From Bellilinea caldifistulae (lineage in GTDB: Bacteria > Chloroflexota > Anaerolineae > Anaerolineales > Anaerolineaceae), in contig NZ_LGHJ01000009.1 of the NCBI RefSeq assembly GCF_001306055.1, forward strand, positions 30,001-62,000: a DNA stretch of 32,000 nt, written 5' to 3'. Every line of letters starts with the position of its first letter. The first letter of the stretch is position 1. The notes below the pieces were generated by a model, which saw only the letters and a program-made list of their open reading frames with translations, was not told the DNA's origin and did no database searches. Below, one piece after another: positions 9,412 through 32,000 of this stretch. A program made the translations under genes and the position numbers.

Positions 9412-11733
9412 TTACAGCTTAAACTGCACCACTACTTTTTCCAGCACCTCTGCCATCTCGGAAAGGGAGTGCGCCGAAGCCGAGACTTCTTCAACCTGCG
9501 CGCTCATCTCTTCCGCCGAGGCAGATACTTCTTCGATGGCGGCGCTGTTCTGCTCGCTGACACTGGCAATCGTTTCAATGGACATGGTCACTTCCGAAGA
9601 ACTGGCCGACATTTGCTCGGTGGCCGCCGTGTTTTCCTCAATGACCGCCGAGACCGAATCGACAGCAGCAATCATTTCATTGGCGGCTTTTTCCATTTCT
9701 ACCGCAGCACGGGCAGCTTGTTGAGCCTGTTGATTGACCTGTTCAACGGTTTGCAGGATTTGTTGGAGCGAATTGCCGGCTTCTCCGGCTGACTCAACTC
9801 CCTTTTCAACTTCCTGCGCGCTTTCCAGCATGGCATTGACCGTCTCACTGACCGACGTCTGGATCGCCTTGATCAAGGTACCGATTTCGCGGGTGGCATT
9901 GGCGGAACGCTCGGCCAGTTTGCGCACCTCGTCAGCCACCACGGCGAATCCTTTGCCATGCTCACCGGCACGCGCGGCTTCGATGGCGGCATTTAGAGCC
10001 AGTAAATTGGTCTGTGAGGCAATGTCCTCAATGGTTTCGACAATCACCCCAATTTGATTGGAGCGATTGCTCATTTCGGCAATTTTTTCAGCGGAGAGGT
10101 CTACTTTTTCACGGATGGACTGCATGCCCTCCACCGTATGGCGTACGGTTTCCTGACCATGCGCAGCCACCTGAGAGGCAGCAGCTGCCCCCTCGGAAAC
10201 GGCTCTGGCAATCGCGGCTACCTGTTGAATGGCTTGATGCAGTTGGGCAGACAGTTGGGTTGCCCTGGCAGCCGCCTGAGCCTGTTCCTGCGCACCGCGG
10301 GCCACCCCATCAATCGTATGCGCCATTTGATCCATGACATTGGCAGTGCGGCTGACCGACTCGGTCTGCTGCCCAACTCCGGCAGCAACTTGCTGCACCG
10401 TTGCAGCAATCTGCGAGGTAGCCTGCCCGGCCTGGCTGGAGGCTGCAGCCAGTTGACTGGCGGCCGCTTTCAGGCTGAGCGCACTGGTCTGGAGTTGATC
10501 CACCTGCTGACGCAGTTTGGCAATCATTCTGGCAAACGAATGGCCCAGCACATCCTTTTCCGAAACCGGTTGAACCTCCACCGTCAAATCTCCCTGGGAG
10601 ATGTGTTCGGCTGCCAGAGCCATCTGACGCTGATAACCGATCAGGGCACGGAACGAATCGGCCAGAATACCGACCTCATCGCGGCTGGTGAAGGTGACTT
10701 CCTGCTCAATATCACCCACGGCCAGTTTACTGGCTATTTGAGCCATCGCCTTGATGGGGTTGGCCAGATTGCGTGCCAGCACCACGCCGATGCCCCCCGC
10801 CAGCGCCAGCACGCCGATCCCCGCCAGGAAGATGATGTTGCGAAGTTGATTGACCGGGGCGTTTGCCTCGGCAAGGTCCTGCTCAACAATCACTCCCCAG
10901 CCGTTTTCGAGCGGCATATACCCGCCAATGACCATCACACCCCGATAGTCTGGATAGCGGTCTACACCGTGTTCACCGCGCAGCAGCCGCTCAGCGGCAA
11001 CCGTTTGGACTTTCACCTCCAACTCGGGACGTTCTTTGAATGAACCGGCTTGCCTCAACTCCTCAGTGAAACGCGGCGGGGTGATCATGTAACCGGCTTT
11101 GTTGACAAGGTAGGCATCGCCGGTTTGGCCGAGCCATGAGTTTTCAAGGACAGATTGAAAAGCACTAGTGGGCAATGATCCGGCTACCATACCAATAACT
11201 TTGGTGGGATTCTGAGGATCATAAAGAGGGGCTGCCACAACCATAATTACATTTCCGGTTGTTCTGGAAACCATCGGCTCAGAAATCACGGTTTGCCCCT
11301 GCATGGCCGCCATGTAGTAGGAACGATCGCTGACATTCAAGGAGGAATTGCCGTTGGAATGGGCAATCGCAATCCCGTCCATACCGGTTACGAAGAGCGT
11401 TTCGTACCAGTTCCACTGTTTGGCATATTGGGTAATCGCTTCCTGTGCGGTTACCGGGTCTAAAGAACGTATCCGCGCAATTCCCGCCAGAGTCTCCAAT
11501 TCAACCTTACGTTGATGCATCCATTCATTTACATACAACTCGGTTGCCTCGGCACTCGATTCGATACGCTCGGTAATAGCTGCTTCCAGCGCTGTCCGGC
11601 TCTGGAAATAGGCAATCAGCCCGACCAGCAGCACCGTCCCTAGCGCCATCAACACAAATGCCCGCGCCAGACGAAAGAGAAGGCTGGATTGTTTATTACC
11701 CGTTTTCAGAATTGGCCATTTGATCTGTTTCAT
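9412..11733 (-). CDS. Methyl-accepting chemotaxis protein (TM - Cache-like sensor - TM - HAMP - MA domain)
   Basis: Conserved signalling hairpin [41 protein letters not shown]. Start set at MKQIKW (ATG 11733-11731), which is preceded by GGAGAGG. The longer ORF to 11967 would run into the tRNA gene. Confidence 0.9.
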
Positions 11734-11887
11734 ATTCCTCTCCATGAGACAACCCAAAATTGTTACCACCCCGATAAGGTATGTGGTACACCTAGCATAA
11801 AACAAGTTGAGCACCATTGGAATAAAAAACAGGTAAAGAGGATATAAACCACAGGTAAAAATTTTCAATTCGGCGTCAGCGCAGCAC

Positions 11888-11916
11888 TTGACGATTCGCG
11901 GCGGGCGCGGTATATT
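11888..11916 (+). promoter_or_regulatory. Sigma70-type promoter of the tRNA/repeat transcription unit
   Basis: TTGACG (11888-11893), 17-nt spacer, TATATT (11911-11916). The predicted start is about 11923-11925, at or within 2 nt of tRNA position +1. Confidence 0.6.
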
Positions 11917-11924
11917 AACAGCAC

Positions 11925-11998
11925 GCCCTCGTAGCTCAATTGGACAGAGCGTTTGCTTGCGGAGCAAAAGGTTGCAGATTCGAGTTCTGCCGGGGGCA
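11925..11998 (+). tRNA. tRNA-Arg, anticodon read as GCG; no encoded CCA
   Basis: Manual cloverleaf: acceptor GCCCTCG/CGGGGGC (one G-U pair), D arm GCTC-AATTGGACA-GAGC, anticodon arm TTTGC-TTGCGGA-GCAAA, variable AGGTT, T arm GCAGA-TTCGAGT-TCTGC, discriminator A. Total 74 nt. Confidence 0.85.
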
Positions 11999-12470
11999 CT
12001 CTGTATTTAAAGTCGCCGACCCCATCGAGGGGTGATATTCGAGCCCTGTCGGGGGCACTCTGTATTTAAGGTCGCCGACCCCATCGAGGGGCGATATTCG
12101 CATTCTGCCGGGGGCACTCTGTATTTAAGGTCGCCGACCCCATCGAGGGGTAATATTCGAGCCCTGTCGGGGCACTCTGTATTTAAGGTCGCCGACCCCA
12201 TCGAGGGGTAATATTTGAGCCCTGCCGGGGGCACTCTGTATTTAAGGTCGCCGACCCCATCGAGGGGTGATATTCGAGCCCTGTCGGGGGCACTCTGTAT
12301 TTAAGGTCGCTGACCCCATCGAGGGGTAATATTCGAGTTCTGCCGGGGGCACCCTGTATTTAAGGTCTCCGACCCCATCGAGGGGTAATATTCGAGTTCT
12401 GCCGGGGGCACCCTGTATTTAAGGTCTCCGACCCCATCGAGGGGTAATATTCGAGCCCTGCCGGGGGCAC
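11999..12470 (+). repeat. Eight tandem ~59-nt direct repeats: 36-nt module plus a copy of the tRNA 3'-terminal 23 nt
   Basis: Units start at 11999, 12058, 12117, 12175, 12234, 12293, 12352 and 12411. The period is 59, once 58. Consensus: CTCTGTATTTAAGGTCGCCGACCCCATCGAGGGGTRATATTCGAG(TT/CC)CTG(C/T)CGGGGGCA. ATTCGAGTTCTGCCGGGGGCAC is identical to tRNA positions 11978-11999. Each unit contains the hairpin ACCCC-ATCGA-GGGGT. Confidence 0.95.
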
Positions 12471-12500
12471 CTTCACAGGGATTCCATCCCTGTACCTCGC

Positions 12501-12538
12501 AACGCATCCAATGGATCCCTGGATGCGTTTTATGTTTT
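12501..12538 (+). terminator. Rho-independent terminator closing the tRNA/repeat unit
   Basis: 10-bp stem AACGCATCCA / TGGATGCGTT, 9-nt loop, then TTATGTTTT. A smaller hairpin, ACAGGGAT-TCC-ATCCCTGT, lies at 12475-12493. Confidence 0.8.
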
Positions 12539-12542
12539 CAGC

Positions 12543-13030
12543 ATGGAAGTTAAGATCCTCGAAGGGACGATTCCACATGGGGAGATGCGGGGCATGCATC
12601 CATTAGACATTTATGTTCCTCAACAAGGGCTAGTACTGGTGCAAGCCGAAGTGGACCTCAAGGAAAATGAGTTGTTGTCGCTCCCAACGAGCCAAACAAG
12701 TCACCTTGGGCGGGGCGATTGTCTTCGGAGATGCTTTGCACGCCCAGCGAGAGACTTCCGCTCAGGTTGTTGGAAAACAGCAGAGACAATCTGTATCAAG
12801 CACGGACAGAGTGGGCAATCCATAGGCTGTTTATGCGTGAAATAGGTAACCTCAAGCAGGGTACAGCCCTCTCCCAAAATTGCCGTTTGGTATCTGGGGT
12901 GCATAAAGAGCATGGATGCCTTGAAAAGAAGCCAATTCTGGTCAGCACCGATCTGAACGAGTATTTGGATTGGCCTGAAGTCGGTCAAGTATTTCGTCTG
13001 GAGTGTAAAGTTTGGCACGAGAAGGGCTGA
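12543..13030 (+). pseudogene. ISAs1-family transposase remnant (N-terminally truncated, at least two frameshifts, internal deletion)
   Basis: Family-typical motifs are split over three frames: GTIPHGEMRGMHPLDIYVPQQGLVLVQAEVDLKENE, then GAIVFGDALHAQRETSAQVV, then VHKEHGCLEKKPILVSTDLNEYLDWPEVGQVFRLECKV. No intact ORF spans them. Confidence 0.7.
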
Positions 13031-13191
13031 CGCTAATAATCTGCTGGTTTTACCTTGTCTTTGCAATGGGTTGGCAAGTTTCGCCTAAGCCCTCCGTGTG
13101 CTTTGTACTCAACCAAGGTATACTCTGCAGTAAATTTTTTCGCTTAAAAATCCTTTCTTGTGAAAGCTCTGGAATTTCAGGATAACGGATC

Positions 13192-13220
13192 TTGTAAATT
13201 GAATCCTAATTTGATATAAT
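13192..13220 (+). promoter_or_regulatory. Extended -10 promoter upstream of the SorC-family regulator
   Basis: TTGTAA (13192-13197), 17-nt spacer, TGaTATAAT (13212-13220). A 14-bp palindrome TGAGCATTTGCTCA follows at 13239-13252. Confidence 0.55.
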
Positions 13221-13237
13221 GTTCTTATGCACACTTA

Positions 13238-14233
13238 ATGAGCATTTGCTCACATAAAAAATTTTGGAATTTTCCCATGCTCACTCAAATTGATTACGAA
13301 GAATATCGTTTGTGTGTACGAGTTGCAAAACTGTACTATGAAAATGGTTTAACCCAAAATGAAATTGCTTGGAAACTGGGTGTTTCCCGTGTGACGGTTT
13401 ACCGATTGCTCAACAAAGCAGTGGAACTGGGAATTGTTGAAATTAAAGTACATGCTACTGTTGGGGAGAATTTCGACCTTGAACAAGAGTTGATTATTCG
13501 CCATAATCTACGAGATGCGGTAGTGGTTCCTGATCCTGAAGGGGAAGAAAGCATCTATCTGGCATTAGCGCGCGGTGCCGCTGATTGGTTAAAGCGAAAC
13601 CTAAAAAATGGTATGCGAGTTGGTTTAGGTTTGGGACGAACAATTTCCCATCTGCCTTTAGTTTTTTCTACAGACTCACCAATTAATTGCACATTTACTG
13701 AAGTGGTTGGTGGGGCTTCGGATCATTCCGGTGGTTTTGCAAAGTACAACGTTACCTCTAAGATGGCTGAACTAGCAGGGGGCAAAGCTGAAATTCTTTA
13801 TGCTCCAAATATGGTCTCAAGTCCTGAACTGCAAAAAAGCCTACTCAACGAACCTACAATTTCGCAAGCACTGGAGCGCGCTCGTCATTCTGATATTATC
13901 CTGCAAAGCGTGGGGACGGTTGATGAAACAGCGATTCTGTATGTAGAAAAGAAGATAACTCTTGACGAATTGCACGAAATCCAGAATTCTGGAGCAGTAG
14001 GAGATGCTTTGGGTCACTATTTTGACCAGAACGGCCAATTGGTTTCAACTTTTTTAGACAATCGTATTATTGGCATTAGTCTGGAAGATTTAAAAAAAGT
14101 ACCATGGAGCGTTTTGATTGCGGGCGGGGATGAAAAGAAACCGGTGATTAAGGCAGCTTTGAAAAGCACCTGTTTTAATGTTCTTGTTACTAATGTAGAT
14201 ACTGCTCGATACTTGCTTATCGAAAGGGATTGA
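13238..14233 (+). CDS. SorC/DeoR(Bsu)-family sugar-binding transcriptional regulator
   Basis: N-terminal HTH LTQNEIAWKLGVSRVTVYRLLNKAVELGIV followed by a SorC-type sugar-phosphate-binding domain. The true start may be ATG 13277 (MLTQIDYEEY). Confidence 0.8.
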   Translation: MSICSHKKFWNFPMLTQIDYEEYRLCVRVAKLYYENGLTQNEIAWKLGVSRVTVYRLLNKAVELGIVEIKVHATVGENFDLEQELIIRHNLRDAVVVPDPEGEESIYLALARGAADWLKRNLKNGMRVGLGLGRTISHLPLVFSTDSPINCTFTEVVGGASDHSGGFAKYNVTSKMAELAGGKAEILYAPNMVSSPELQKSLLNEPTISQALERARHSDIILQSVGTVDETAILYVEKKITLDELHEIQNSGAVGDALGHYFDQNGQLVSTFLDNRIIGISLEDLKKVPWSVLIAGGDEKKPVIKAALKSTCFNVLVTNVDTARYLLIERD

Positions 14234-14237
14234 AATA

Positions 14238-14675
14238 ATGCTTGCAGATTATTTAACTCCTGATGTCATTCGGTTAAGAATACGGGTTAGTAATTGGCAA
14301 GAAGCTGTACGTGCTGGAGGTCAATTGCTGATGCAGGCAGGTAAATGTGGGTTATCTTACGTTGAATCTATGGTGCGAGCCGTGCAGGAAATGGGACCTT
14401 ACATGGTTTTGGCTCCGGGTTTAGCTTTAGCGCATGCCCGACCAGAAGATGGTGCAGATGTGGTGGGACTTTCACTTGTGACTCTTGCTACACCAGTGGA
14501 ATTCGGCTCGGAAACTAATGATCCTGTAAGTGTGGTTATTTCCTTCTGTGCTCCAGATCGTGAAAGCCATATTGGAATGCTTCAGTCGCTTGCAGAATTT
14601 CTGATCAACGAAGACAATCAACGACTTTTGAAAACGGCTGAAACGGTTGATGAGATATTATCAGCTGTCATTTGA
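14238..14675 (+). CDS. ulaC: PTS EIIA component, L-ascorbate family (UlaC/SgaA-like)
   Basis: GPYMVLAPGLALAHARPEDG matches the UlaC phosphorylation-site region [20 protein letters not shown]. Size is 145 aa. The symbol is family-level only. Confidence 0.8.
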   Translation: MLADYLTPDVIRLRIRVSNWQEAVRAGGQLLMQAGKCGLSYVESMVRAVQEMGPYMVLAPGLALAHARPEDGADVVGLSLVTLATPVEFGSETNDPVSVVISFCAPDRESHIGMLQSLAEFLINEDNQRLLKTAETVDEILSAVI

Positions 14676-14705
14676 TTTTTTACCCATGAAAGAAAGGAGA
14701 GAGAA

Positions 14706-15005
14706 ATGAAAAAGCCACGCGTGATGATGGTATGCGGTTTTGGCCTTGGCTCTAGCATGATTTTAAAGATTACTGTTGATGGTGTTCTCAAGGAACATGG
14801 TTTGGGTGCAGAAACATTCTGTGCTGATGCTACTACGGCGAGCGGCGAGTCGTATGACATGATATTTACTTCCAAAGAAATGGCTAATTTATTTAAGAAC
14901 ACAACGAAACCAGTAGTTGTAATCGAAAATTTTCTTAGCAAACAAGAAGTGCTCGATAAGGGATTACCGGTTTTGCGGAAATTAATTGAGGAGTTGAATC
15001 CTTGA
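14706..15005 (+). CDS. ulaB: PTS EIIB component, L-ascorbate family (UlaB/SgaB-like)
   Basis: Active-site Cys context VMMVCGFGLGSSMILK (UlaB: ILAVCGNGQGSSMIMK). 99 aa. AAGGAGAG RBS. The symbol is family-level only. Confidence 0.8.
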   Translation: MKKPRVMMVCGFGLGSSMILKITVDGVLKEHGLGAETFCADATTASGESYDMIFTSKEMANLFKNTTKPVVVIENFLSKQEVLDKGLPVLRKLIEELNP

Positions 15006-17176
15006 AAGACTTTTCGGATACTTTCAAGTATGGGGCTTCATATTCCCCCTTGATATTCAGTGAAACCGAATGGGAGAGTGATTTGCGGCTGATGCAGGCA
15101 GCCGGGATGAACTTGATTCGCATTGGGGATGTACATGGTTCTTGGGACTTAATCGAACCGCGCGAGGGTGATTTTGAATTTGAAAAACTGGGGCGTTTTT
15201 ATCGGTTAGCTGCTCAATATGGGATCGAAATTCTGATAAGCACAGGGGCTGCTTCCCCACCGCTATGGCTAGCAAATCGTTACCCCGATGTAGTAATCCT
15301 TTCAAACCGTGGTGAACGTTATCCTCTAGGTGCCTCCTATCACTGGGCTTGTATTCACCATCCTGGCTACTTGGCAGCCCTGAAAAATTATCTACAGGCA
15401 TTGTTAGGTTTTACAGTCCAGCACCCAAACCATTTTGGATGGCAAATATCTAACGAAATTGGTTTCCCATTTCTTCCTGCCCGTGGAGAAAATGATCTAA
15501 GCCTTTATTGTTATTGTCCATATTGCGTCGAGAGATTTCGCGACTGGCTTAGAACCAAATACCCAAGCTTAGAACATCTCACAAAAGCTTGGGGATGGGG
15601 TACAACTTATCTGGTTTATAACGATTGGCAAGAGGTATTCGCACCTGAGGCTTTGCCCTCTGGCTGGGCAGGGGTTACCCGTTGGATAGACTGGCGCTTA
15701 TTTTGGCAGCAAGCCTTTGCGGATTTTGCGGGTTGGCAACATAGAATTATCAAACAACACGATCCATCCCACCCAACCTCAGTCAACACATTTAATTTCA
15801 AAAGCTATGATCGATTCGGTGTGATCACGGGTCTGGATCAATGGAAGATAGCCAGGGAGGTTGACCATATTGGTTATGATCTTTATCCAGGCAGCGGCAA
15901 CAAATTAGCAACTCGTCCGGAACATATTTCGATATTCCTCGATCACGGTCGAAGCGTAAGCCAGTCCGTAGAACGGGATTTCTGGCTACATGAGGTGGAA
16001 AGTGGGCCAATTGGCGGTTGGATAATGGGTCCGGACTACAACACCAAATCTGAAGATGTAAATAATTATCTAATAGAGTCGGTTGGGCATAATGCTAAAC
16101 TCGTTTTATTTATGCCTTGGCGAGAATGGGATTACCAACCTCTGCGCTGGGGAGCGATAGTTGACCTAGATGGTCATCCTAGTGAGCGATATACCACTGC
16201 TACCCAATGGGGAGAGTTCCTTTCAAGATATGGAAGAATATTGAAGAAAGCTCAATCACCGAGAGGTCAAGTTGCCATCTTTGAATCCAAGTCCAACGCA
16301 ATCTTCTTTCGTGGTATTGGAGAAGAGGAACCACTATTTGAGGCTCAACGTGGAGCTTATCGTGGCTTTTGGGAATTAGATTTTGGAGTGGACTTTATAA
16401 CGGCCGCTGAAATAACAAAGGGTCGTTGGCAGGAATATCAGGTCATTATTCTACCGATGATCGGTTTATTGGATATTGAGACGGCTAAAAATCTGGCTGA
16501 ATTTGGCAAACAGGGCGGTCTTTTGGTGGGATTTTCTCGTTTTGCCACGTTGAATGAACAAGGTTGGTATCATCACCAGATCCCAGTACCGCCATTGAAA
16601 AATGTCTTTGGTTTTGAAGATGTTCAGGCAGACTGTCTTAACCAACATCGAATTTTATACAGTGGTAAGTGGTACCCATCTTTTTGGAATCGAGATCTAT
16701 TAAAAATTGGTGCATCTGTCCAAGTTTTAGCTGAATTTGATGATCGGTTTCCTGCAGTGACCTTATCGCAATTTGGAAGAGGATATGGCCTCTACTTTGC
16801 TACACAGGCAGACTCAGGCTATCTTAAATCTGATCAACCACTACTTAAGGCAGTTCTCCAAAGGGTTTTGCCACAATTAAAAATTATGCCGCAAATTCAA
16901 ATTGATTATAAAGGAAAAAAATCTCGCCGAATTGATCATCATTATCTTGAACTGCCTAATAAAAAGTTAGTTCTGATTAGCAACTATCACGAACAGAGTG
17001 TTGATCTTAACCTTTATCTCAATACAACCAACTGGAAAAAGAAAATATTATCCATTCAACAAGTTTTTCCCGTGGTTAAACAAATTGAGTGGGAAATGGT
17101 CAACGACTCTTTACAAATTCATTTTCAGTTAAATACCAAGGAGGTGTCTGTCATTGAAATCGAATTAATCGAATAA
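15002..17176 (+). CDS. Glycoside hydrolase family 42 (beta-galactosidase-like)
   Basis: GH42 N-terminal TIM-barrel pattern (WESDLRLMQAAGMNLIRIG..WDLIEPREGDFEF, ISNEIG) and the Cys cluster CYCPYCVERFRDWL. The TTG start overlaps the EIIB stop (TTGA). Confidence 0.75.
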   Translation: MKDFSDTFKYGASYSPLIFSETEWESDLRLMQAAGMNLIRIGDVHGSWDLIEPREGDFEFEKLGRFYRLAAQYGIEILISTGAASPPLWLANRYPDVVILSNRGERYPLGASYHWACIHHPGYLAALKNYLQALLGFTVQHPNHFGWQISNEIGFPFLPARGENDLSLYCYCPYCVERFRDWLRTKYPSLEHLTKAWGWGTTYLVYNDWQEVFAPEALPSGWAGVTRWIDWRLFWQQAFADFAGWQHRIIKQHDPSHPTSVNTFNFKSYDRFGVITGLDQWKIAREVDHIGYDLYPGSGNKLATRPEHISIFLDHGRSVSQSVERDFWLHEVESGPIGGWIMGPDYNTKSEDVNNYLIESVGHNAKLVLFMPWREWDYQPLRWGAIVDLDGHPSERYTTATQWGEFLSRYGRILKKAQSPRGQVAIFESKSNAIFFRGIGEEEPLFEAQRGAYRGFWELDFGVDFITAAEITKGRWQEYQVIILPMIGLLDIETAKNLAEFGKQGGLLVGFSRFATLNEQGWYHHQIPVPPLKNVFGFEDVQADCLNQHRILYSGKWYPSFWNRDLLKIGASVQVLAEFDDRFPAVTLSQFGRGYGLYFATQADSGYLKSDQPLLKAVLQRVLPQLKIMPQIQIDYKGKKSRRIDHHYLELPNKKLVLISNYHEQSVDLNLYLNTTNWKKKILSIQQVFPVVKQIEWEMVNDSLQIHFQLNTKEVSVIEIELIE

Positions 17177-17240
17177 TAAACACAACCTGAATCTTCACAT
17201 TTCCATCCAAATTTCCAAAATCTAAATAAGGAGTATCAAA

Positions 17241-18521
17241 ATGGACGTCGGATTAATATTCAGTATCGTTCCTCGTTTACTACCTACATTTATGCTGGGG
17301 TTGGTTGCGCTCATAGGGTTATTATTGCAACGCAAAACCTTAAGCGAAGTCATTGCCGGCACGATTAAAACGATGGCGGGAGTTATCATCTTATTCTCCG
17401 CAGTGGATCTCCTGGTTGGGGTTATCTCACCTATCTCAACCATGTTTGGTAAGGTGTATGCTTTCCAGGGAGAGCCCATCAGCGTAGATTGGACAGCTTT
17501 TTTAAGCGAATACGGGATTCCCGTTGTGTTGGTGATGGTATTTGGTTTTTTTGTTAACATCGTGCTTGCGAGGCTAACCAAACTAAAATATGTCTTCCTG
17601 ACCGGACACATCATGTTTTGGAATGCCTTTATGGTAGTAGCCGCATTAGCCGATGCCGGGAAAATTAAGGGCGTAGCATTGATTGTTCTAGGAAGCTTGA
17701 TACAGGGGATCCTATCTACAATTTTGCCTGCCTTGATCGCTCCCTTTGTCTTCAAATTAACTGGAACAAAGGATTTCACAATTGGCCATACAACCACTAT
17801 TCTGGCCGTCATTGGAGCCTGGCTAGGAAAATTGGTTGGTGATCCATCCAAGTCCACCGAAGATTTGAAAATCTCCGATAATTGGAGTTTTCTCAAATCA
17901 ATGACAATTTCAACCTCGCTGATAATGTTTTTACTGTACCTCGTAATGGGCTTCATTGCTGGCCCAGCATGGGCAGCCGAAACTTTCTCGGGCGGTTCTC
18001 AACCAATCTGGTATCTTTGGATTATTTACCAGGGTATTCTTTTTGGTGCTTCCTTAACCATTTTGCTCACTGGTGTTCGTCTAATGTTAGCGGAGATTGT
18101 GCCAGCGTTCCATGGGATTGCCAAAAAGGTTGTCCCTGATGCCATACCAGCATTAGATTGCCCGATGGTATTTCCATACGCACAAAACGCCCTCGCAATT
18201 GGTTTCCCGATTGCGATGATTACCTCACTAATCACGCTGGTCATCTTTGGGGCAATTGGGTATCGTTATGTTTTGTTGCCATTGGTGGTTGCCGCTTTCT
18301 TCGATGTAGGACCGGCTGCCGTACTTGCAAATGCGACGGGTGGAAGGCGAGGAGCAATCGTTGCATCTGCTGTTGGAGGCGTGATGCTAATAGTCCTTCA
18401 AGCGCTTTCGTTGCCATTTGTAGCAAATACCGCTGCGGGTTTTATCAATGCGTTTGGAGGAAATGATTTCTCCGTTATTGCGATTGTTGTAGGTGGAATA
18501 GCCCGCTTACTTGGTTTTTAG
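17241..18521 (+). CDS. ulaA: PTS EIIC component, L-ascorbate family (UlaA/SgaT-like)
   Basis: Polytopic membrane protein collinear with UlaA: TIKTMAGVIIL, FLTGHIMFWNA, FTIGHTTT, STEDLKISDNWSFLKSMTIS, GVRLMLAEIVPAFHGIAKKVVPDAIPALDC. AAGGAG RBS. The symbol is family-level only. Confidence 0.9.
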   Translation: MDVGLIFSIVPRLLPTFMLGLVALIGLLLQRKTLSEVIAGTIKTMAGVIILFSAVDLLVGVISPISTMFGKVYAFQGEPISVDWTAFLSEYGIPVVLVMVFGFFVNIVLARLTKLKYVFLTGHIMFWNAFMVVAALADAGKIKGVALIVLGSLIQGILSTILPALIAPFVFKLTGTKDFTIGHTTTILAVIGAWLGKLVGDPSKSTEDLKISDNWSFLKSMTISTSLIMFLLYLVMGFIAGPAWAAETFSGGSQPIWYLWIIYQGILFGASLTILLTGVRLMLAEIVPAFHGIAKKVVPDAIPALDCPMVFPYAQNALAIGFPIAMITSLITLVIFGAIGYRYVLLPLVVAAFFDVGPAAVLANATGGRRGAIVASAVGGVMLIVLQALSLPFVANTAAGFINAFGGNDFSVIAIVVGGIARLLGF

Positions 18522-18537
18522 AGGGTTCCGAATTCTG

Positions 18538-18571
18538 GTCTCCTAATCGGTAATATTACCGATTAGGAGAC
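18538..18571. repeat. 34-nt perfect inverted repeat in the EIIC-epimerase intergenic spacer
   Basis: GTCTCCTAATCGGTAAT / ATTACCGATTAGGAGAC: 17-nt arms, no mismatches, no trailing T-tract. It lies 17 nt after the EIIC stop and 24 nt before the next ATG. Confidence 0.9.
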
Positions 18572-18594
18572 TACATAGGGATTAAGGAGAGAAG

Positions 18595-19440
18595 ATGTTG
18601 CCCGTTGGAATTCACCTTTCTTACTGGCAAGTTAACTGGCAAGACGATCTTCAACCGCTTATTGGTAAAGCCAAGTCGGCTGGCTTTGATGTTGCTGAGT
18701 TTCCTATATTAGAACCGCGTAAGTTGAACCTCAAAAATCTCCGCCGAACCCTTGATCATGAGGGAATGTTGGCATCCTGTGGGACTGGACTGGATACCAA
18801 GCGTGATATATCGAGTCCTGATCTCTCCATCCGGCAGGCGGGTGTTTCTCATTTGCGAGCCTGCATAGAATCTGCAGCCATATTAGGAAGCCCGGTTTTA
18901 GGCGGCGTGATTTATACTGCTTGGGGAGATATACCACCAAAAGATCGTAAACTGCGGCGCGCTTATGCAATTGAAAATCTTCAAATAGCAGCAATGATCG
19001 CAGAAGAGTACGGTGTGTATTTGTGCCTTGAAGTATTGAATCGATTTGAAGGGTGGTTGATTAACACTGTGGAAGAAGGGCTGGAATTGTTAGCAGAGGT
19101 AAACAGTCCATTTGTTAAGTTGCATTTAGATACTTTTCACCTAAATATTGAAGAAGACGATATTGCTTCATCCATTCGGCATGCCGGAGAGAATCTTGGT
19201 CATTTTCATTGCGTTGAGAACAATCGCAAAGTTCCCGGTCGTGGTCATATTCCTTGGGGACAGGTTAGAGATGCTTTAAGAGAAATCGGTTATTCCGGGT
19301 ATTTGGTGACGGAAGCATTTGTAAATCCATCTGGTGAAGTAGGTAATGCATTGTTCATATGGCGTTCACTGGCAGATGATCCTGATCTAGAAGCACGCTC
19401 GGCAGCTGAATTTCTCAAGCGCGAGGTTGCCAATGTATAG
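18595..19440 (+). CDS. Ketose 3-epimerase family protein (D-psicose/D-tagatose 3-epimerase-like, xylose-isomerase-like TIM barrel)
   Basis: Metal and catalytic motifs shared with DPEase/DTEase: LEVLNRFE, LDTFHLNIEE, GHFH, VTEAF. 281 aa. AAGGAG RBS. Confidence 0.7.
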   Translation: MLPVGIHLSYWQVNWQDDLQPLIGKAKSAGFDVAEFPILEPRKLNLKNLRRTLDHEGMLASCGTGLDTKRDISSPDLSIRQAGVSHLRACIESAAILGSPVLGGVIYTAWGDIPPKDRKLRRAYAIENLQIAAMIAEEYGVYLCLEVLNRFEGWLINTVEEGLELLAEVNSPFVKLHLDTFHLNIEEDDIASSIRHAGENLGHFHCVENNRKVPGRGHIPWGQVRDALREIGYSGYLVTEAFVNPSGEVGNALFIWRSLADDPDLEARSAAEFLKREVANV

Positions 19441-21121
19441 CCTCTATGAGTTACGTCTATGGTTCAAACTCCTGGCAGCAAAATTTCAACAACAACAAGA
19501 TTATCTGAACCAATTAGATCAGGCTATCGGGGATGGTGATCATGGCTTCACCCTTGCCAGAGCATTTGCCTCTGCCAACTACGAGATCGAAAAATCCGTA
19601 CCAACCGACCTCGGCATTTTTCTTGATGTGGTTGCCAGTGCAGTTGCTGAAAACGGTGGTGGTGCGATTGGGCCTTTATTAGCGGCTTTTTTTGCAGAAG
19701 GTGGCACGTTGTTTAGAAATCGCACATTTTGGGACATTGTTGATCTGCAAAACTTTTTTGAGCGGGGTGCAAATGCAATTAGCGAATTAGGGGGGGCTAA
19801 GGCTGGCCAGAAAACCTTATTGGATGCTTTGTTACCAGCGGTGCGGGCTTTGAAGGAAAGTCAATTCGACAAAGAGCCGGTTATGGTTGTAAAAAATGCT
19901 CTTGAGGCAGCTTACCGGGGTAGTGAAGCTACTCGCCAGATGGTGGCAACATTTGGTAGAGCTGCTTTCCTAGGAGAACGTTCTATCGGACATCCGGATC
20001 CAGGCGCGATGTCCTTTGTACTCATTATGCAATGTTTATTTGATGCTTTGAATGGCAAACAAGATGAAATTTTGATCACTGATGATACAACAGAGGAAGA
20101 TTTTATTCCACCGGGTAAATTTATCAATCGCCCTGAACATATGATCGCCGAGGATAATCAAGGATTAGCAATGGCCTACCCTGGAATTGTTGAATACCTT
20201 GAGGAAGGGATTTTGGTGAGAAAAAAACCCAAAGCTGAAGGGAAGGTAGGGTTGACAATTGGGCATGGTGGTGGTCATACCCCGTCAATGGGAGGTTTGG
20301 TAGGAGTTGGTCTTTTGGATACCGATGTGTATGGCCCCCTCTTTACCTGTGCTTCAGGAATTAAAATTGCCCGTGCTATTCAGCTGGCGGATCGCCATGC
20401 TGGAGTTGTTTTATTAGTTTCCAATCACAGCGGGGACGTATTAAATGCGCGTATGGCGTTAAGGCGGGCTGCTGAATGGGGAATTGATGTAAAACCAGTT
20501 TATTTAGGGGATGATGTCGCTACTGCTCCACGTTCCGAGATCCATAAGCGGCGTGGTTTAGGAGGATTGTTGTTTGCTCTCAAGATTGGTGGGGCAGCTG
20601 CAGAGATGGGACAGCCAATTAATGAAGTCGTTCGATTGATGGAAAAGGCCAACCTGCATACGGCAACATTGGCGATCGCGACCCGGCCACCAACTCATCC
20701 CGTCAGTGGAAAACCCTTATTCGAACTTCAAAAAGGACAAATGGAGATTGGAACCGGTGTCCATGGGGAAGTAGGCGTTTATCGAGGGCCTATCCTACCG
20801 GCTGAGCAGGTGGTTGAAGTTGTGATCAATCGCTTATTAGATGATTTAGCCGGCTTGCTTCAGAGAAAAGTTTTGGTTTTTTTGAATGGGGCCGGTGGGA
20901 CTTCACATATGGAGTTAAATATTCTCTACCGAAATACTTATTTATTCTTAAAGGATAAAGGTGTTCAGATTGCTGGGGCGGTGGTGGAATCGCTCTTTAC
21001 CACCCTAGAAATGGGGGGGGTCTCATTTTCCCTTTTGGCTATAGATGATGAAATGGAATATTGGTGGCAAAAACCAGCACTGTCAGCTCATTTCCGATGG
21101 CCTACGGATGTAATTTGCTAA
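19433..21121 (+). CDS. Dihydroxyacetone-kinase family protein, permuted fusion (N-terminal DhaL/Dak2, C-terminal DhaK/Dak1)
   Basis: The N-terminal ~200 aa carry DhaL motifs (LDQAIGDGDHG, GGGAIGPL, GQKTLLDALLPA, TFGRAAFLGERSIGHPDPGA). The C-terminal ~340 aa carry DhaK motifs (GLTIGHGGGHTP, SGDVLNA, YLGDDVA, RRGLGG, MEIGTGVHGE, LNGAGGTSHMEL). Start set at ATG 19433, after GAGG. Confidence 0.8.
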   Translation: MYSLYELRLWFKLLAAKFQQQQDYLNQLDQAIGDGDHGFTLARAFASANYEIEKSVPTDLGIFLDVVASAVAENGGGAIGPLLAAFFAEGGTLFRNRTFWDIVDLQNFFERGANAISELGGAKAGQKTLLDALLPAVRALKESQFDKEPVMVVKNALEAAYRGSEATRQMVATFGRAAFLGERSIGHPDPGAMSFVLIMQCLFDALNGKQDEILITDDTTEEDFIPPGKFINRPEHMIAEDNQGLAMAYPGIVEYLEEGILVRKKPKAEGKVGLTIGHGGGHTPSMGGLVGVGLLDTDVYGPLFTCASGIKIARAIQLADRHAGVVLLVSNHSGDVLNARMALRRAAEWGIDVKPVYLGDDVATAPRSEIHKRRGLGGLLFALKIGGAAAEMGQPINEVVRLMEKANLHTATLAIATRPPTHPVSGKPLFELQKGQMEIGTGVHGEVGVYRGPILPAEQVVEVVINRLLDDLAGLLQRKVLVFLNGAGGTSHMELNILYRNTYLFLKDKGVQIAGAVVESLFTTLEMGGVSFSLLAIDDEMEYWWQKPALSAHFRWPTDVIC

Positions 21122-21135
21122 TGATGGAGAACGAA

Positions 21136-22578
21136 ATGAAAACTATTCGAAATTTGAAGGTTGGATTGGTCGGAATGATGTGCACTCCATTTCGTGGAGA
21201 TAAAGAACATTATTTTTTGGAGGATTGGCAAACCCTTTTGGGATTACAGGAGGAATTGGGCTTTGAATTGAAAGTAATCGAAGAAGGTATCTACACAAAG
21301 GATGAGGCTCAACAATCTGCAACTAAGTTGGCTGAATGGGGTGCTGATTTCATCCTGGTACAATCCAGTTCTTTTGCTGCTGGTGAGTTTATTCAGCCAT
21401 TTGCTGCTACTAAAATTCGGTTGGGATTATGGGGTGTACCCGAAGGTGTACCTTCAAAAGAAGGTGGATTGCCATTAAATAGTTTTACAGGTGTTAATCT
21501 TTACAACAGTCTCTTGAGAACTAGATTGGGTTATCCTCATCCCATAAAGTGGTTCTTTGGTCGTGCTGAAAGCCCTACTTTCAGGGAACGGTTCAGTATC
21601 AGTATGCGTGCATTGCGAGCGCTTATCAATTTGCAGGGCAGCCGAATTGGCTTAGCCGGAGGTGTGGCACCCGGTTTTGATAACCTCATAATTAATCCCG
21701 AGGATTTAAAACGGAAACTTGGGGTAGAAATGGTCGAACTAAATTTTGAAAAAGTGCTGGAACGTGCCCAATTATTAAGAGATGATAAACGATTGGAGTC
21801 CGTAAAATCTTCCTTTCTAAAAGAAAACGTGCAATTTGATATCGGCTTGAATGAGCATTTGGAAAAATTATCTCGTTTGCAAATTGCATATTTGCAAATT
21901 GCCGAAGAGGAAGGAATTAATGCATTTGCAATTTCGTGCTGGCCGCGTTTTCAAGCCGATTATGGGGTGGCAGTGTGCAGCCTTCTCGGAGAATTGAATA
22001 CTCTTGGTGTTCCGGCGGCTTGTGAAGGCGATGTACCATCGGCAGTTTCGATGTTAGCGCTTTCGCTGATAAGTAGCGGTACCGTTAGAACCCTGATGGA
22101 TTTGGTCACCCTTGATCCGGCTGACGATAGTGTGCTTTTGTGGCATTGCGGCCCAACCTCGCCACTTCTGGCTGACCAACGAGGTGTAAGAATGGGTTCG
22201 TTATGGTTGTTTGATCAACAAGGAGGAACACCTATCGGATTGCATAATGATCTTACCTTGCAAGCAGGTAGGGTAACCGTAGGGGGTTTCACGGCTGATT
22301 TTGAAAAGGTATTGGTATTCCAAGGTGAAATTGATCCTCATAAGCCTTCCTATAGGGGTAGCAGAGGTTGGTTAAAGAACATTCAAATGCGAAAGAAGCC
22401 GCTCCGAGCGCTTGATCTTGCTGAGACGCTCCTTTCCAGTGGTTTTCAGCATCATTATCCAGTTATTTATGGAGAAGTAGAGGAGGCTTTTTTAGAAATG
22501 GCTGCATGGGCAAATATCCTTGAAATTAAACCTATTGAATACTCCACCCATCTCAAAGCACAGGGATTGCCATGTTAG
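21136..22578 (+). CDS. L-fucose/L-arabinose isomerase family protein (COG2407-like)
   Basis: About 480 aa with VGLVGMM..., ILVQSSSFAAGE, GVPAACEGDVPSAVSMLAL, LLWHCGP, typical of FucI/AraA-like sugar isomerases. Start chosen at ATG 21136, after GGAG. Confidence 0.55.
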   Translation: MKTIRNLKVGLVGMMCTPFRGDKEHYFLEDWQTLLGLQEELGFELKVIEEGIYTKDEAQQSATKLAEWGADFILVQSSSFAAGEFIQPFAATKIRLGLWGVPEGVPSKEGGLPLNSFTGVNLYNSLLRTRLGYPHPIKWFFGRAESPTFRERFSISMRALRALINLQGSRIGLAGGVAPGFDNLIINPEDLKRKLGVEMVELNFEKVLERAQLLRDDKRLESVKSSFLKENVQFDIGLNEHLEKLSRLQIAYLQIAEEEGINAFAISCWPRFQADYGVAVCSLLGELNTLGVPAACEGDVPSAVSMLALSLISSGTVRTLMDLVTLDPADDSVLLWHCGPTSPLLADQRGVRMGSLWLFDQQGGTPIGLHNDLTLQAGRVTVGGFTADFEKVLVFQGEIDPHKPSYRGSRGWLKNIQMRKKPLRALDLAETLLSSGFQHHYPVIYGEVEEAFLEMAAWANILEIKPIEYSTHLKAQGLPC

Positions 22579-23873
22579 TTTCCTTAAAGGAATTACTCGA
22601 AGACGCCGAAGTGGGTAATTATGCCGTTATTGCCCCGGATTTCCCCAATTTAGAAGTAGCGGATGCCTTGCTAAGTTGTGCTGAACAATATAACGCTCCT
22701 TTAGCATTAAGTTTCTCGCCATCGCTTAAGCCTTTTATCGGTTTATCAGATTTTAGTCATTTCATTCGGTTAGTCCGTGAAATGGCAGTGCAGGCGAACA
22801 TACCAGTAGCCTTACATCTTGATCATGCTCATACCATCAAAGAAATTGATGAGGCAATCCAATTGGGTTTTACTTCGGTAATGATTGATGCTAGTACTGA
22901 GCCTTGGGAGACCAATGTGGAACTCAGTAAAAAAGTGGTTGAAATGGCTCACCCATTGGGAATTTCCGTTGAAGCGGAATTGGGACATGTCGCCACAAGC
23001 GGACGTTACCTCAATGATGTTAGTCAGCATGGGTGGTTGACTGACCCTCAGGAAGCAGCGGCCTTTGTGCAATTAACTGGAATTGACGCCTTAGCGGTAG
23101 CGATTGGAACAGTTCATGGTTTATACGCGGGCGAGCCTAATCTGGAATTTGACCGATTACAAGCCATTCGAGAACGAGTTTTGATTCCACTTGTGTTGCA
23201 TGGTTCTTCTGGAACGGGTAAAGAAAAACTACACCGCTGCGTCGATCTAGGAATTCGAAAAATTAATGTTTATTCGGATTTGATCAAGACGATTGTTCAA
23301 AGTGCGCAAGAAGTACTTGCTCACCCAGAGGACGACCCTTTGAATTTTATGCAAGAACAGCGATACGCGATTTATCAGGTTTTAGGTGAGTATATAACAG
23401 TATCGGGCAGCGCTGCAAAGGCGGACAATTTCCGAAATTCTATTAAAAACCGCATTCGATCTCTTTTTTTACAAGGTTACACCTGCGCAGAGGCGATTTA
23501 TCTGGCTTTTGCCGAACGAGAAGGATTTTACTCGGATTATGCATTACAAATTCAAAGCTTGTTAGGTGGGGGTGTTTGCAATCAAGGAGGTATATGTGGT
23601 GCATTATTCGGTGGCCTAGCAGTAATTGCTGCGCGTCACTCCTCTATATTACCGACAGCACGTCTAAAGCGCAAAGAGGCAAATTTTTCCGGTGCCAAGT
23701 TGATCGAATCTTTTAAAGCCCGCCATTCTACGGTTCATTGCATTGACCTGACTGGTACTAACTTTTTGGATGCCGAACAAGTAAAGCAATTTGTGGAAAA
23801 TAAAGGGGTAGAAAGAACTTGCCTTCCTGTATTAATGTCTGTGGCGGATTCGTTATTGGAGAATTTGTCATGA
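22572..23873 (+). CDS. Class II fructose/tagatose-bisphosphate aldolase fused to a C_GCAxxG_C_C domain
   Basis: Residues about 1-285 carry aldolase motifs: VALHLDHAHT, SVMIDAS, VEAELGHV, AIGTVHGLY, LVLHGSSG. Residues about 300-433 carry the second domain: GYTCAEAIYLAFAE, GGGVCNQGGICGALFGG, HCIDL, CLPVL. It overlaps the upstream stop by 7 nt. Confidence 0.8.
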   Translation: MLVSLKELLEDAEVGNYAVIAPDFPNLEVADALLSCAEQYNAPLALSFSPSLKPFIGLSDFSHFIRLVREMAVQANIPVALHLDHAHTIKEIDEAIQLGFTSVMIDASTEPWETNVELSKKVVEMAHPLGISVEAELGHVATSGRYLNDVSQHGWLTDPQEAAAFVQLTGIDALAVAIGTVHGLYAGEPNLEFDRLQAIRERVLIPLVLHGSSGTGKEKLHRCVDLGIRKINVYSDLIKTIVQSAQEVLAHPEDDPLNFMQEQRYAIYQVLGEYITVSGSAAKADNFRNSIKNRIRSLFLQGYTCAEAIYLAFAEREGFYSDYALQIQSLLGGGVCNQGGICGALFGGLAVIAARHSSILPTARLKRKEANFSGAKLIESFKARHSTVHCIDLTGTNFLDAEQVKQFVENKGVERTCLPVLMSVADSLLENLS

Positions 23874-24718
23874 GGAAATATTTAGAATCTGATTTGAGAA
23901 AAATAAGACAAATTCGTTGTTTCTTATTGGACATGGATGGCACGGTCTTTCTAGGGAACCATTTATTGCCGGGTGCTGTGGAATTCATTGAATATTTAGA
24001 AAATGGGGGAATACCTTTTTACTTCCTAACCAATAATTCTTCGCGTTCCAAACGAGACTATGTTGATAAACTGAATAGAATGGGACTTTGCATCACTCAG
24101 GAACGGGTTTTTTCTTCTGGAGAAGCTACTGCGCTATATCTAAAAAAGACAATGCCATCAGCCAGATTGTTCATTGTAGGAACCGACTCTCTAATAGAGG
24201 AATTTAGACAATATGGCTTTGAGATTGATGAAAATCAACCCGAGGCGGTTGTTTTAGGTTTTGATACAACCCTGACCTATTCTAAGTTGTGGAAATTATG
24301 TAATTACGTTCGGCTTGGATTGCCGTATATTGCAACTCATCCCGATATCAATTGTCCAACAGAAAATGGTTCCATGCCGGACATTGGAGCGATGATCGCC
24401 TTTGTTCAGGCATCTACCACACGTTTGCCAGATGTGATCATTGGTAAGCCCAATCCTCCAATCGTTGAAATTGTTTCTGAAAAAAGTGGACTACCACTGG
24501 AAAATACTGCAATGATAGGAGATCGGTTGTATACGGATATCGCCTTAGGTAGGGCTGGGATCACCACTATTCTGGTGTTAACTGGAGAGACTAAATTAGA
24601 AGATGTAGAAGGATCACCATATAAACCGGATGTAATAGTCGAAAGTCTATTAGATTTATATAATTTTTTTGTACAAAACAATGGAGAAAAGAATGGTCTC
24701 AACCACCATCATGATTGA
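23870..24718 (+). CDS. HAD superfamily subfamily IIA sugar phosphatase (NagD-like)
   Basis: Motif I FLLDMDGTV, then LTNNSS, IGKPNP, GDRLYTDI. The ATG overlaps the aldolase stop (ATGA). Confidence 0.8.
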   Translation: MRKYLESDLRKIRQIRCFLLDMDGTVFLGNHLLPGAVEFIEYLENGGIPFYFLTNNSSRSKRDYVDKLNRMGLCITQERVFSSGEATALYLKKTMPSARLFIVGTDSLIEEFRQYGFEIDENQPEAVVLGFDTTLTYSKLWKLCNYVRLGLPYIATHPDINCPTENGSMPDIGAMIAFVQASTTRLPDVIIGKPNPPIVEIVSEKSGLPLENTAMIGDRLYTDIALGRAGITTILVLTGETKLEDVEGSPYKPDVIVESLLDLYNFFVQNNGEKNGLNHHHD

Positions 24719-31569: not shown

Positions 31570-32000
31570 TTAATCTGATTGAGTTAATTGACTGGTATGC
31601 CCCATACGTTTAGCCCTCAAATTCCTCAAAGCAGGAATAGAGGTGAATAAAATCAAGATTACACCAACAACGAATCTCTGCCACTCAACCGGAATACCGG
31701 TGAGAATCAACGCCCGGTTGATAACTTGAATAACCAGCACCCCCAGCGTGGTTCCAATAATAGAGCCGCTACCGCCGGTTATTGCTGCTCCTCCCAATAT
31801 GATCGCTGCTAAAACATCCAGTGGTTGGGTAATGAAAATCACCGGGTTAAAGTATCGGCTTAGAAATGCCTGTGTAACACCGGCAATTGCCGAGAACAAT
31901 CCCATGATGCCGAAAATTACGAAGAAAATTAAGCGCACATTGAAACCAGAGCGGACGGCTACTTCGCGATTCCCTCCAATTGCATAAACCCCTCTCCCTA
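31570..32000 (-). CDS. Sugar ABC transporter permease, C-terminal part (continues beyond window)
   Basis: The frame stays open to the window edge. C-terminal family pattern: ILGGAAITGGSGSIIGTTLGVLVIQVINRALILTGIPVEWQ. Confidence 0.7.
   Translation of the reverse strand, partial: GRGVYAIGGNREVAVRSGFNVRLIFFVIFGIMGLFSAIAGVTQAFLSRYFNPVIFITQPLDVLAAIILGGAAITGGSGSIIGTTLGVLVIQVINRALILTGIPVEWQRFVVGVILILFTSIPALRNLRAKRMGHTSQLTQSD

Follow-up and report, generated by a model that had tools for sequence, protein, structure and literature searches.

Tandem Repeats That Copy the 3′ End of tRNA-Arg(GCG) in Bellilinea caldifistulae and Its Relatives Follow the Sequence Plan of the Escherichia coli RtT Repeats

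Introduction

The RtT repeats have been known for about thirty years. In the tyrT-tyrV region of Escherichia coli K-12 a 178-nt repeat is present in 3.1 copies, with one more copy located between the two tRNA genes. Each of the E. coli units ends in AATCCTTCCCCCACCACCA, that is, in the 19 nt with which tRNA-Tyr ends; one unit carries the annotation of a processed non-coding RNA (ncRNA), rttR. The mode of action of RtT is still called unknown in a preprint (bioRxiv 10.1101/2024.07.17.603846). Here we describe an array of eight tandem units of 59 nt that follows the tRNA-Arg(GCG) gene in a 32,000-nt stretch of contig NZ_LGHJ01000009.1 of Bellilinea caldifistulae (Anaerolineaceae, Chloroflexota); this whole stretch is called the window. 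Each unit ends in a copy of the 3′ end of the tRNA. We hold with moderate confidence that the array represents a tRNA-derived repeat of the RtT kind, situated in the 3′ trailer of tRNA-Arg(GCG), which would be co-transcribed with the tRNA, would change its copy number by unequal recombination and would yield RtT-like RNAs carrying a constrained hairpin.

Two other kinds of tandem arrays offer themselves for comparison. In chloroplasts of Brassicaceae, tandem partial copies of trnF are situated beside the functional gene, with copy numbers variable among close relatives; these arrays are regarded as neutral and quick to decay. Type III toxin-antitoxin systems of the ToxI/ToxN kind combine a promoter, short tandem RNA repeats, a terminator and a toxin gene (PMC5086642). 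No literature description of an array such as the one reported here was found for B. caldifistulae. The original prediction, made from the sequence alone, had stated that no element of this architecture was described; the E. coli tyrT/RtT repeats turned out to be built alike.

Results

Structure of the Array

The locus reads on the forward strand as a promoter-like site, tRNA-Arg, eight units (one of them 58 nt long) and a terminator. This layout had been predicted, and it was borne out by ARAGORN, Rfam, Tandem Repeats Finder, the cutting of the array into units, and scans and folding for the promoter-like site and the terminator. The tRNA-Arg with anticodon GCG (11925-11998 or 11999; ARAGORN and Rfam RF00005, 68.1 bits) is the sole tRNA called in the window and has no encoded CCA. 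Since CGU and CGC codons in bacteria are usually decoded by tRNA-Arg(ACG), the GCG isoacceptor is unusual. All the orthologous tRNA-Arg genes of relatives share this anticodon with the window, and their identity to the tRNA of the window is 97-100%. A sigma-70-type promoter-like site, TTGACG - 17 nt - TATATT (11888-11916, + strand), matches the consensus at 10/12 positions and ends 8 nt 5′ of the tRNA. The same hexamers precede the orthologous tRNA at loci L002, L004, L015, L023, L025, L027, L029 and L032, and the 40 nt 5′ of the tRNA have an identity of 0.80-0.95 between lineages, L029 excepted. An insertion of 21 nt that forms a hairpin, GTCCCGACCGGATCGGGATAC, separates the -10 box from the 5′ end of the tRNA at L029/L030 (4800-4825, - strand), in this Bellilinea sp. 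lineage only.

Eight head-to-tail units occupy positions 11999-12469; seven have a length of 59 nt, and the remaining one has 58 nt. Tandem Repeats Finder reported a period of 59 nt at 11978-12470, repeated 8.4 times with 92% matches and without indels. Cutting of the array gave unit starts at 12001, 12060, 12119 (the 58-nt unit), 12177, 12236, 12295, 12354 and 12413. Across the array 47 of the 59 columns were invariant, the spacer and the hairpin showed no variation, and 7 of the 12 variable columns fell in the copy of the T loop and T stem. The hairpin core GACCCCATCGAGGGG occurred 8 times compared to 0.09 expected, while the 22-nt tRNA tail occurred 8 times at no more than three mismatches compared to 0 expected. 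An additional tail copy, in the 58-nt unit 3 (12155-12174), is one G short and was therefore missed by the ungapped search; with it the tRNA 3′ segment is present nine times, as had been predicted.

The extent of the copied segment, given originally as 23 nt, had to be revised. The actual tRNA homology of a unit is about 33 nt and includes the variable loop, the T arm and the 3′ acceptor strand (11968-11998 in the tRNA, + strand). A covariance model built from 20 units (R1) scored 31.8 bits (E = 2e-5) on the tRNA's own positions 11968-12000, which aligned to model positions 12-62 and lacked the hairpin as a deletion. In a pairwise alignment the tRNA sequence AAGGTTGC-AGATTCGAG...GCAC corresponds to the unit sequence AAGGTCGC[TGACCCCATCGAGGGGTA]ATATTCGAG...GCAC. 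The unit piece AAGGT(C/T)GC.GA is the counterpart of the variable loop and the T-stem 5′ strand, and the hairpin ACCCC-ATCGA-GGGGT is an insert between this tRNA-like 5′ piece and the T loop. Thus, a unit begins with about 10 nt of T-rich spacer, which are followed by the variable loop and T-stem 5′ strand. The hairpin insert of 18-19 nt comes next, and then the T loop, the T-stem 3′ strand, the 3′ acceptor strand and the discriminator.

All units are on the + strand. Unit 1 (11999-12057, 59 nt) has its hairpin core at 12018-12032, carries the AAAGTC variant and belongs to the CCCTGTC class; unit 5 (12234-12292, 59 nt; core 12253-12267) differs from it at one position. Unit 2 (12058-12116, 59 nt; core 12077-12091) shows the variants GGGGCGAT and TTCGCATTC, unit 3 (12117-12174, 58 nt; core 12136-12150) has its G run short by one G, and unit 4 (12175-12233, 59 nt; core 12194-12208) has the variant TTTGAGCCC. 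Unit 6 (12293-12351, 59 nt) can be divided into the spacer (12293-12302), the tRNA-like 5′ piece AAGGTCGCTGA (12303-12313), the insert (12314-12330) and a tRNA-identical tail (12331-12351). The tail of unit 7 (12352-12410, 59 nt; core 12371-12385) is also tRNA-identical, and unit 8 (12411-12469, 59 nt; core 12430-12444) is followed directly by the trailer. The sharing of variants by neighboring units, claimed earlier, was seen in units 6-8 and was not significant array-wide (permutation p = 0.27).

The array was predicted to be non-coding, and no open reading frame (ORF) of at least 80 aa was found across it. A coding role was rejected for this reason, and also because the period cannot be divided by 3 and inspection by eye gave no conserved start codon. 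A CRISPR array was rejected as well: both halves of the 59-nt period repeat, so that the would-be spacers are identical, and the 47 invariant columns say the same.

A trailer hairpin, CACAGGGAT-TCC-ATCCCTGT (12475-12493, + strand), and an intrinsic terminator with a 10-bp stem followed by TTTTATGTTTT (12501-12538, + strand) are predicted 3′ of the last unit. The fold of both together (12472-12545) had an energy of -26.6 kcal/mol (z = -4.76). At L003 the window-type trailer hairpin sequence is located directly 3′ of the tRNA, without units, and the terminator stem is preserved there via a compensatory change from T-A to C-G; the contig ends 20 nt after this trailer and terminator. At L029 a terminator-like hairpin is situated about 60 nt 3′ of the array. 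The earlier claim of a single strong terminator after the array stands, with the addition that a terminator scan also flagged weak terminator-like hairpins within units 1, 3, 4 and 5. A promoter scan flagged no internal promoter in the units. GC content changes from 52-58% upstream of the array to 42-46% downstream.

Distribution and Conservation of the Units

Orthologous loci were collected via the adjacent gene of a chemotaxis receptor (MCP), and genomes and metagenomes were scanned for the hairpin core. A short ORF beside the array has 100% identity to a hypothetical protein of B. caldifistulae. Window positions 9833-16030 are identical to scaffold DF967971.1 of B. caldifistulae GCA_001050215.2 (L039) over 6.2 kb, including all eight units; the hairpin-core scan of the genome collection did not return this genome. 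By the original prediction, absence of the unit from all relatives would have pointed to a neutral duplication. Instead, units were found 3′ of the orthologous tRNA-Arg in every relative examined but L003, that is, at L002, L004, L006, L013-L016, L019-L021 and L023-L032, and these relatives span two clades. In clade A the MCP is 81-90% identical to that of the window and the insert is CCCC-ATCGA-GGGG, while in clade B (L027-L032) the MCP is 66-72% identical. Two MCP homologs that were sought for more distant synteny (P0020 and P0026) were not adjacent to tRNA-Arg.

The copy number ranges from 0 to 8 across lineages, and near-identical strains differ. Six units are present at L002, two and a truncated third at L004, one truncated unit at L006 and also at L032, at least two at L013 and at L016, three and a truncated fourth at L014, one and a truncated second at L015 and L026, four and a truncated fifth at L019-L021, one and a stub at L025, two at L027, three at L029 and five at L030. 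L029 and L030 have the same MCP protein, and L040, near-identical to the window, differs from it in one unit. Unit 1 is where the contigs of L023, L024, L031 and L041 break off and where L028 shows an N gap; therefore, copy numbers from short reads are minimum or uncertain values. Arrays are present in more than 10 independent assemblies, hence an assembly artifact was rejected.

L002 and L003 agree at 100% of positions between the MCP gene and the variable loop of the tRNA; beyond it they have 6 and 0 units, respectively. When L003 1-165 is set against L002 7380-7820, identity extends from upstream into the tRNA as far as its variable loop, where one has T and the other C, and the sequences are unrelated after the tRNA. 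Recombination within the tRNA may have left this breakpoint, which is possibly an attL.

Arrays beside other tRNA genes, which had also been considered, were not seen: a search of 340 kb of related DNA with R1 found units solely next to tRNA-Arg. Matches to the core pattern in 596 Gb of genomes and in the metagenomes were the arrays plus chance sites only. A dispersed repeat of the REP or MITE kind was rejected, since neither search gave copies at unrelated loci. Both the clade A core and the tRNA 3′ half were absent from the viral contigs searched, and on this ground a phage or element origin of the unit was rejected. We observed 22 nt identical to the clade A insert (CCGACCCCATCGAGGGGTGATA) in unrelated intergenic DNA at L011 (5004-5032), between 19-nt direct repeats AAGGCNGCTTACAGGCTGGC; this match is probably due to chance (R1 17.7 bits, E = 0.1).

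The tRNA-like parts of the units track the tRNA of their own clade. The clade B tRNA has a compensatory T-stem change from GCAGA/TCTGC to CCAGA/TCTGG, and the clade B unit reads AAGGTT-TCAGA-CCCCC-GCAA/GCAT/GTAT-GGGGG-...-TTCG.GT-TCTGG-CGGGGGCA. The stem of the inserted hairpin stays constant while its loop varies (ATCGA, GCAA, GCAT, GTAT, CAGAA). As a neutral yardstick we used the 150 nt upstream of the promoter. Most clade A lineages had an identity of 0.56-0.77 in this stretch, with 0.90 for L002 and L025, which are a close pair. Between clades the identity was 0.51-0.58, which equals that of shuffled sequence (0.50) and means saturation. The identity of units was 0.80-0.93 within clade A and 0.67-0.80 between clades, and the same was true of the 5′ part of the unit, which is mostly not tRNA-derived. 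The units thus appear to be conserved beyond the neutral level, which we take as evidence of constraint, because conversion from the tRNA gene could account for the tail, whereas the preservation of the insert and of the TTTAAGG block would not follow from it.

RNA Structure and Proposed Mechanism

The consensus fold made by RNAalifold has two hairpins, the inner one and another that the T-stem 3′ and acceptor 3′ strands form with each other; none of their pairs is compensatory. A pseudo-acceptor helix can also be drawn, in which GG(U/C)(U/C)GCCG pairs with the unit's own CGGGGGC in the register of the tRNA; it is 85% paired and the changes in it are one-sided. No RNA structure is backed by covariation. 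A reading of CxGA...UGAU as a K-turn or box C/D-like motif was rejected, as by eye the geometry does not fit. No known RNA family could be assigned either: there was no Rfam match in the array even at E <= 10.

In the RtT-like reading that we prefer, the array would be transcribed together with the tRNA, as the promoter-to-terminator layout suggests. Copy number would shift in 59-nt steps through unequal recombination or slippage between the tRNA-identical tails, and recombination of this kind would also keep the tails matched to the tRNA. The trailer would be cut at or near the tRNA-like 3′ ends and the AU-rich spacers, with hairpin-containing RNAs of about 59 nt as the products. These RNAs, and not the DNA, would bear whatever function preserves the hairpin and the TTTAAGG block. 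Among the hypotheses of the original prediction, processed small RNAs appear to be the best surviving one, for which RtT offers a precedent.

Several points weigh against this reading. Co-transcription, processing and function are inferred from the sequence layout. Covariation across homologous arrays, a check proposed in the original prediction, did not come out in its favor by pair counting or RNAalifold: the inner hairpin is 98.8% paired, yet its pairs never vary, and the T-stem-like outer helix, 75% paired, shows a single clade-linked double change from G-C to U.G. The T-stem-like and pseudo-acceptor helices are mutually exclusive and fit comparably well. Exceptional RNA stability was rejected, as the fold of the whole array was no better than that of shuffled sequence (z = -0.27) and single units were mostly not unusually stable, with L027 alone standing out (z = -3.6). 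Since the units have no true 5′ acceptor strand, cleavage by RNase Z is not assured, and the weak terminator-like hairpins inside units could end transcription early. Loss of the array is possible, as L003 shows. In L014-type strains the tRNA promoter and the array are more than 9 kb apart owing to an integrated element, and the array is still intact. Finally, horizontal exchange at this recombination hotspot could account for part of the conservation.

Alternative Explanations

A bolder form of the RNA hypothesis is that the units make up a conserved family of "tRNA-tail" RNAs of about 59 nt, with 1-8 copies per tRNA-Arg transcript, convergent with the RtT design. Such RNAs might act in trans as decoys or sponges for factors that read the T arm or the 3′ acceptor end, or might buffer RNases of the neighboring variable islands, with copy number serving as a fast-evolving control of dosage. 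We put this forward only tentatively.

That the array is a functionless minisatellite, as the original prediction had allowed, seems to us rather doubtful. In such a case, a duplication of the tRNA 3′ end, left as an attL/attR scar of a T-loop-targeting element or as a decayed tandem tRNA, would have seeded the repeat; slippage or unequal crossing-over would have multiplied it, and conversion by the tRNA would have kept the likeness. The drift in copy number between 0 and 8 speaks in favor of this possibility, with near-identical strains being unequal (0 against 6 at L003 and L002, 3 against 5 at L029 and L030) and L003 being entirely without an array. Further support comes from the exactly tRNA-identical block, which begins at the T loop as in T-loop att sites, from the location in a hotspot of integration and recombination, where right flanks vary and the last unit is often truncated at differing points, and from the finding of no covariation. 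On the other hand, the identity of units (0.67-0.93) exceeds that of flanking non-coding DNA (0.51-0.77), and it is the parts not derived from the tRNA (the hairpin stem, TTTAAGG and the spacer) that are the most conserved, surviving between clades whose neutral DNA is saturated. Conversion by the tRNA would erase the hairpin insert, and at least one unit is kept by every lineage except L003.

A function at the DNA level, where the units would serve as extra att-core copies forming an integrase landing pad or decoy, or as arm-type binding sites, looks unlikely. Some observations do point in this direction. At L005, L014 and L019-L021 a tyrosine integrase gene (PF00589) precedes a partial tRNA-Arg, after which the units begin; at L014 a Rad52-like gene and a methylase of restriction-modification type accompany the integrase. 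The corresponding empty sites, which have the same right flank, are L015 and L026. Given the integrase loci with partial tRNA-Arg and the matching empty sites, tRNA-Arg(GCG) is by its sequence context an integration hotspot in relatives. The identity of L002 and L003 up to the tRNA variable loop and the low-GC or AT-rich cargo right of the array in the window and L002 would also agree with a DNA-level role. Nearly every lineage has a different right flank next to its array.

The details of the elements argue otherwise. The block of identity between element and tRNA begins in the anticodon stem (TTTGCTTGCGG...), which the units do not have. The elements occupy the tRNA itself, with the units remaining on the chromosomal side (L014 compared with L015 and L026), and no unit was found in integrative-element DNA by the R1 search or in viral contigs. 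No locus has a distal isolated copy of the tail bounding an island, and there is none up to window position 32000. The T loop of a unit has GTGATA beside it instead of the T-stem 5′ strand, so that units do not possess the symmetric core that T-loop att sites have. The hairpin loop, of 4 or 5 nt, is unlike a dimer-binding palindrome. Because of the anticodon-stem block, the insertion in the tRNA, the elements without units, the missing distal tail and the missing symmetric core, a landing-pad role for the units, one of the original suggestions, is unlikely, even though integrase elements do target this tRNA in relatives. Protein family searches found no integrase in the window; with neither an integrase nor a distal tail copy there, and with the elements of relatives bounded by a block from the anticodon stem to the 3′ end, identity of the array with an integrative-element att site was rejected. 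An att-type duplication may conceivably have been the historical seed of the repeat.

Some features of the elements themselves are worth recording. Those at tRNA-Arg(GCG) in L014 (4736-13000), L019-L021 and L005 have the integrase beside attR, and they carry a type I/IIG-like methylase, tRNA-Val(CAC) and a Rad52-like protein. The element arm beside the partial tRNA has an inverted copy of the tRNA 3′ end (AAGTGCCCCCGGC); therefore, attP could form a tRNA-like fold that has no D arm. In Leptolinea sp. HRD-7, a tyrosine integrase is located just 3′ of tRNA-Val(GAC) (L034, 6595-7809); it is absent from a related genome (L035), and there are no repeats at that place.

It is about as improbable that the units act as tandem weak terminators or insulators, in which a GC hairpin of the T-stem 3′ and acceptor 3′ strands with the T-rich spacer would damp read-through from the strong tRNA promoter into variable cargo. 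Four of the eight units were flagged as terminator-like, while shuffled regions gave 2.6 sites each; all lineages have a T-rich spacer despite variation of its sequence, and changes from TT to CC and from A to C strengthen this hairpin in several lineages. However, the clade B units were unflagged, the sole terminator-like site there being 3′ of the array, and the window already has a strong terminator 3′ of its array. The conserved inner hairpin and the TTTAAGG block would be left unexplained.

An RNA antitoxin of the type III kind is very improbable: the layout of promoter, tandem RNA repeats, terminator and toxin gene does resemble ToxI/ToxN (PMC5086642), an ORF of the window begins 5 nt past the terminator, L002 has an AT-rich ORF 3′ of the array and L015 and L026 have a co-oriented RHH-PIN pair downstream, but the lineages do not share any conserved downstream gene, Pfam, NCBIfam and PADLOC gave no match to the candidate ORFs, and the next gene is convergent in L004, L027 and L029.

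In the window, the DNA right after the terminator (12543-13237) contains overlapping short ORFs on both strands that match no family. It had been described as a remnant of an insertion sequence (IS), for which Pfam, NCBIfam, PADLOC and plasmids gave no match. The only homologs found are a 65-aa hypothetical protein annotated in this same genome, BECAL_00828 (12833-13030), and one metagenomic protein of 71% identity. By eye there is a faint, unconfirmed flavor of a DDE transposase (GDALHAQ..., WPEVGQVFRLE). An island of sugar utilization follows (13238-24718 and 25005-26747; 42-46% GC compared to 52-58% GC in the flanks), with genes of a SorC-type regulator, PTS IIA/IIB/IIC, a GH42 beta-galactosidase, a sugar-phosphate isomerase, dihydroxyacetone kinase, a class II aldolase and a HAD phosphatase, and then a PtsI gene of 64% GC. 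No integrase or att copy bounding this island was found within the window. At L002 (6122-7262, - strand) the ORF directly 3′ of the array codes for 261 aa, in which LRNDVMHAH (Rx4H, HEPN-like) was noticed by eye, with no profile match; the 111-aa Cys-rich ORF after it recurs right 3′ of the array at L016 (~14600-14740). At L015 and L026 the RHH-PIN pair takes this place.

Discussion

The preferred reading places the array beside several described systems, with which it shares some features and from which it differs in others. Membership in the type III toxin-antitoxin systems was rejected, as there is no ToxN, CptN, TenpN or AbiF-like gene 3′ of the array and the downstream genes differ in every lineage. 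Unlike ToxI arrays, the array has no conserved toxin gene 3′ of it, and its units are derived from a tRNA and stand behind a functional tRNA gene. As in the partial tRNA 3′-end duplications of attL and attR, the tRNA-identical block spans the T loop to the 3′ end; unlike those duplications, the copies here are tandem and 36 nt apart with no element between them, and they have extra tRNA homology and a conserved hairpin. In contrast to the trnF arrays of Brassicaceae, the parts of the Bellilinea-type units that are not derived from the tRNA are conserved across genera.

The closest counterpart is the RtT repeat of E. coli. Membership in the RtT family itself (RF00391) was rejected, as there is no similarity at the level of sequence or covariance model: the window had no match at the gathering score (45 bits), and region 11990-12560 had none at E <= 10, while the positive control, the E. 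coli locus L038, gave four matches of 133-137 bits. What the two have in common is the architecture, and by the sequence plan an RtT-type architecture is present in both the window and E. coli. Tandem repeats are located 3′ of a tRNA gene in the same transcription unit, each repeat ending in the 3′ acceptor strand of that very tRNA; for Bellilinea the co-transcription is predicted. Even the interior is planned alike, with a 3′ portion of the tRNA interrupted at the T loop by an insert: AAGGTTCG, a 68-nt insert and AATCCTTCCCCCACCACCA in E. coli, compared to AAGGTT.C.GA, an insert of 18-19 nt and TTCGAGTTCTGCCGGGGGCA in Bellilinea. The tail encodes CCA in E. coli and does not in Bellilinea, and the small tpr ORF contained in the E. 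coli repeats has no counterpart in the Bellilinea array. Since the phylum (Chloroflexota) is a different one, the Bellilinea array most likely originated independently.

These arrays have a practical side as well. They break short-read assemblies at tRNA genes, and they can be mistaken for att scars or for CRISPR-like repeats. B. caldifistulae is a cultured organism, and natural variants with 0 to 8 copies exist, which makes for a tractable comparison. Placed next to E. coli, where the repeat is 178 nt long, the 59-nt repeat of Bellilinea in its 0-8 copies is a second example of the same plan, unrelated in sequence, from a distant phylum and apparently conserved beyond neutral expectation. This suggests that trailer repeats tagged with a tRNA tail are a recurrent, selected design rather than an oddity of E. 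coli.

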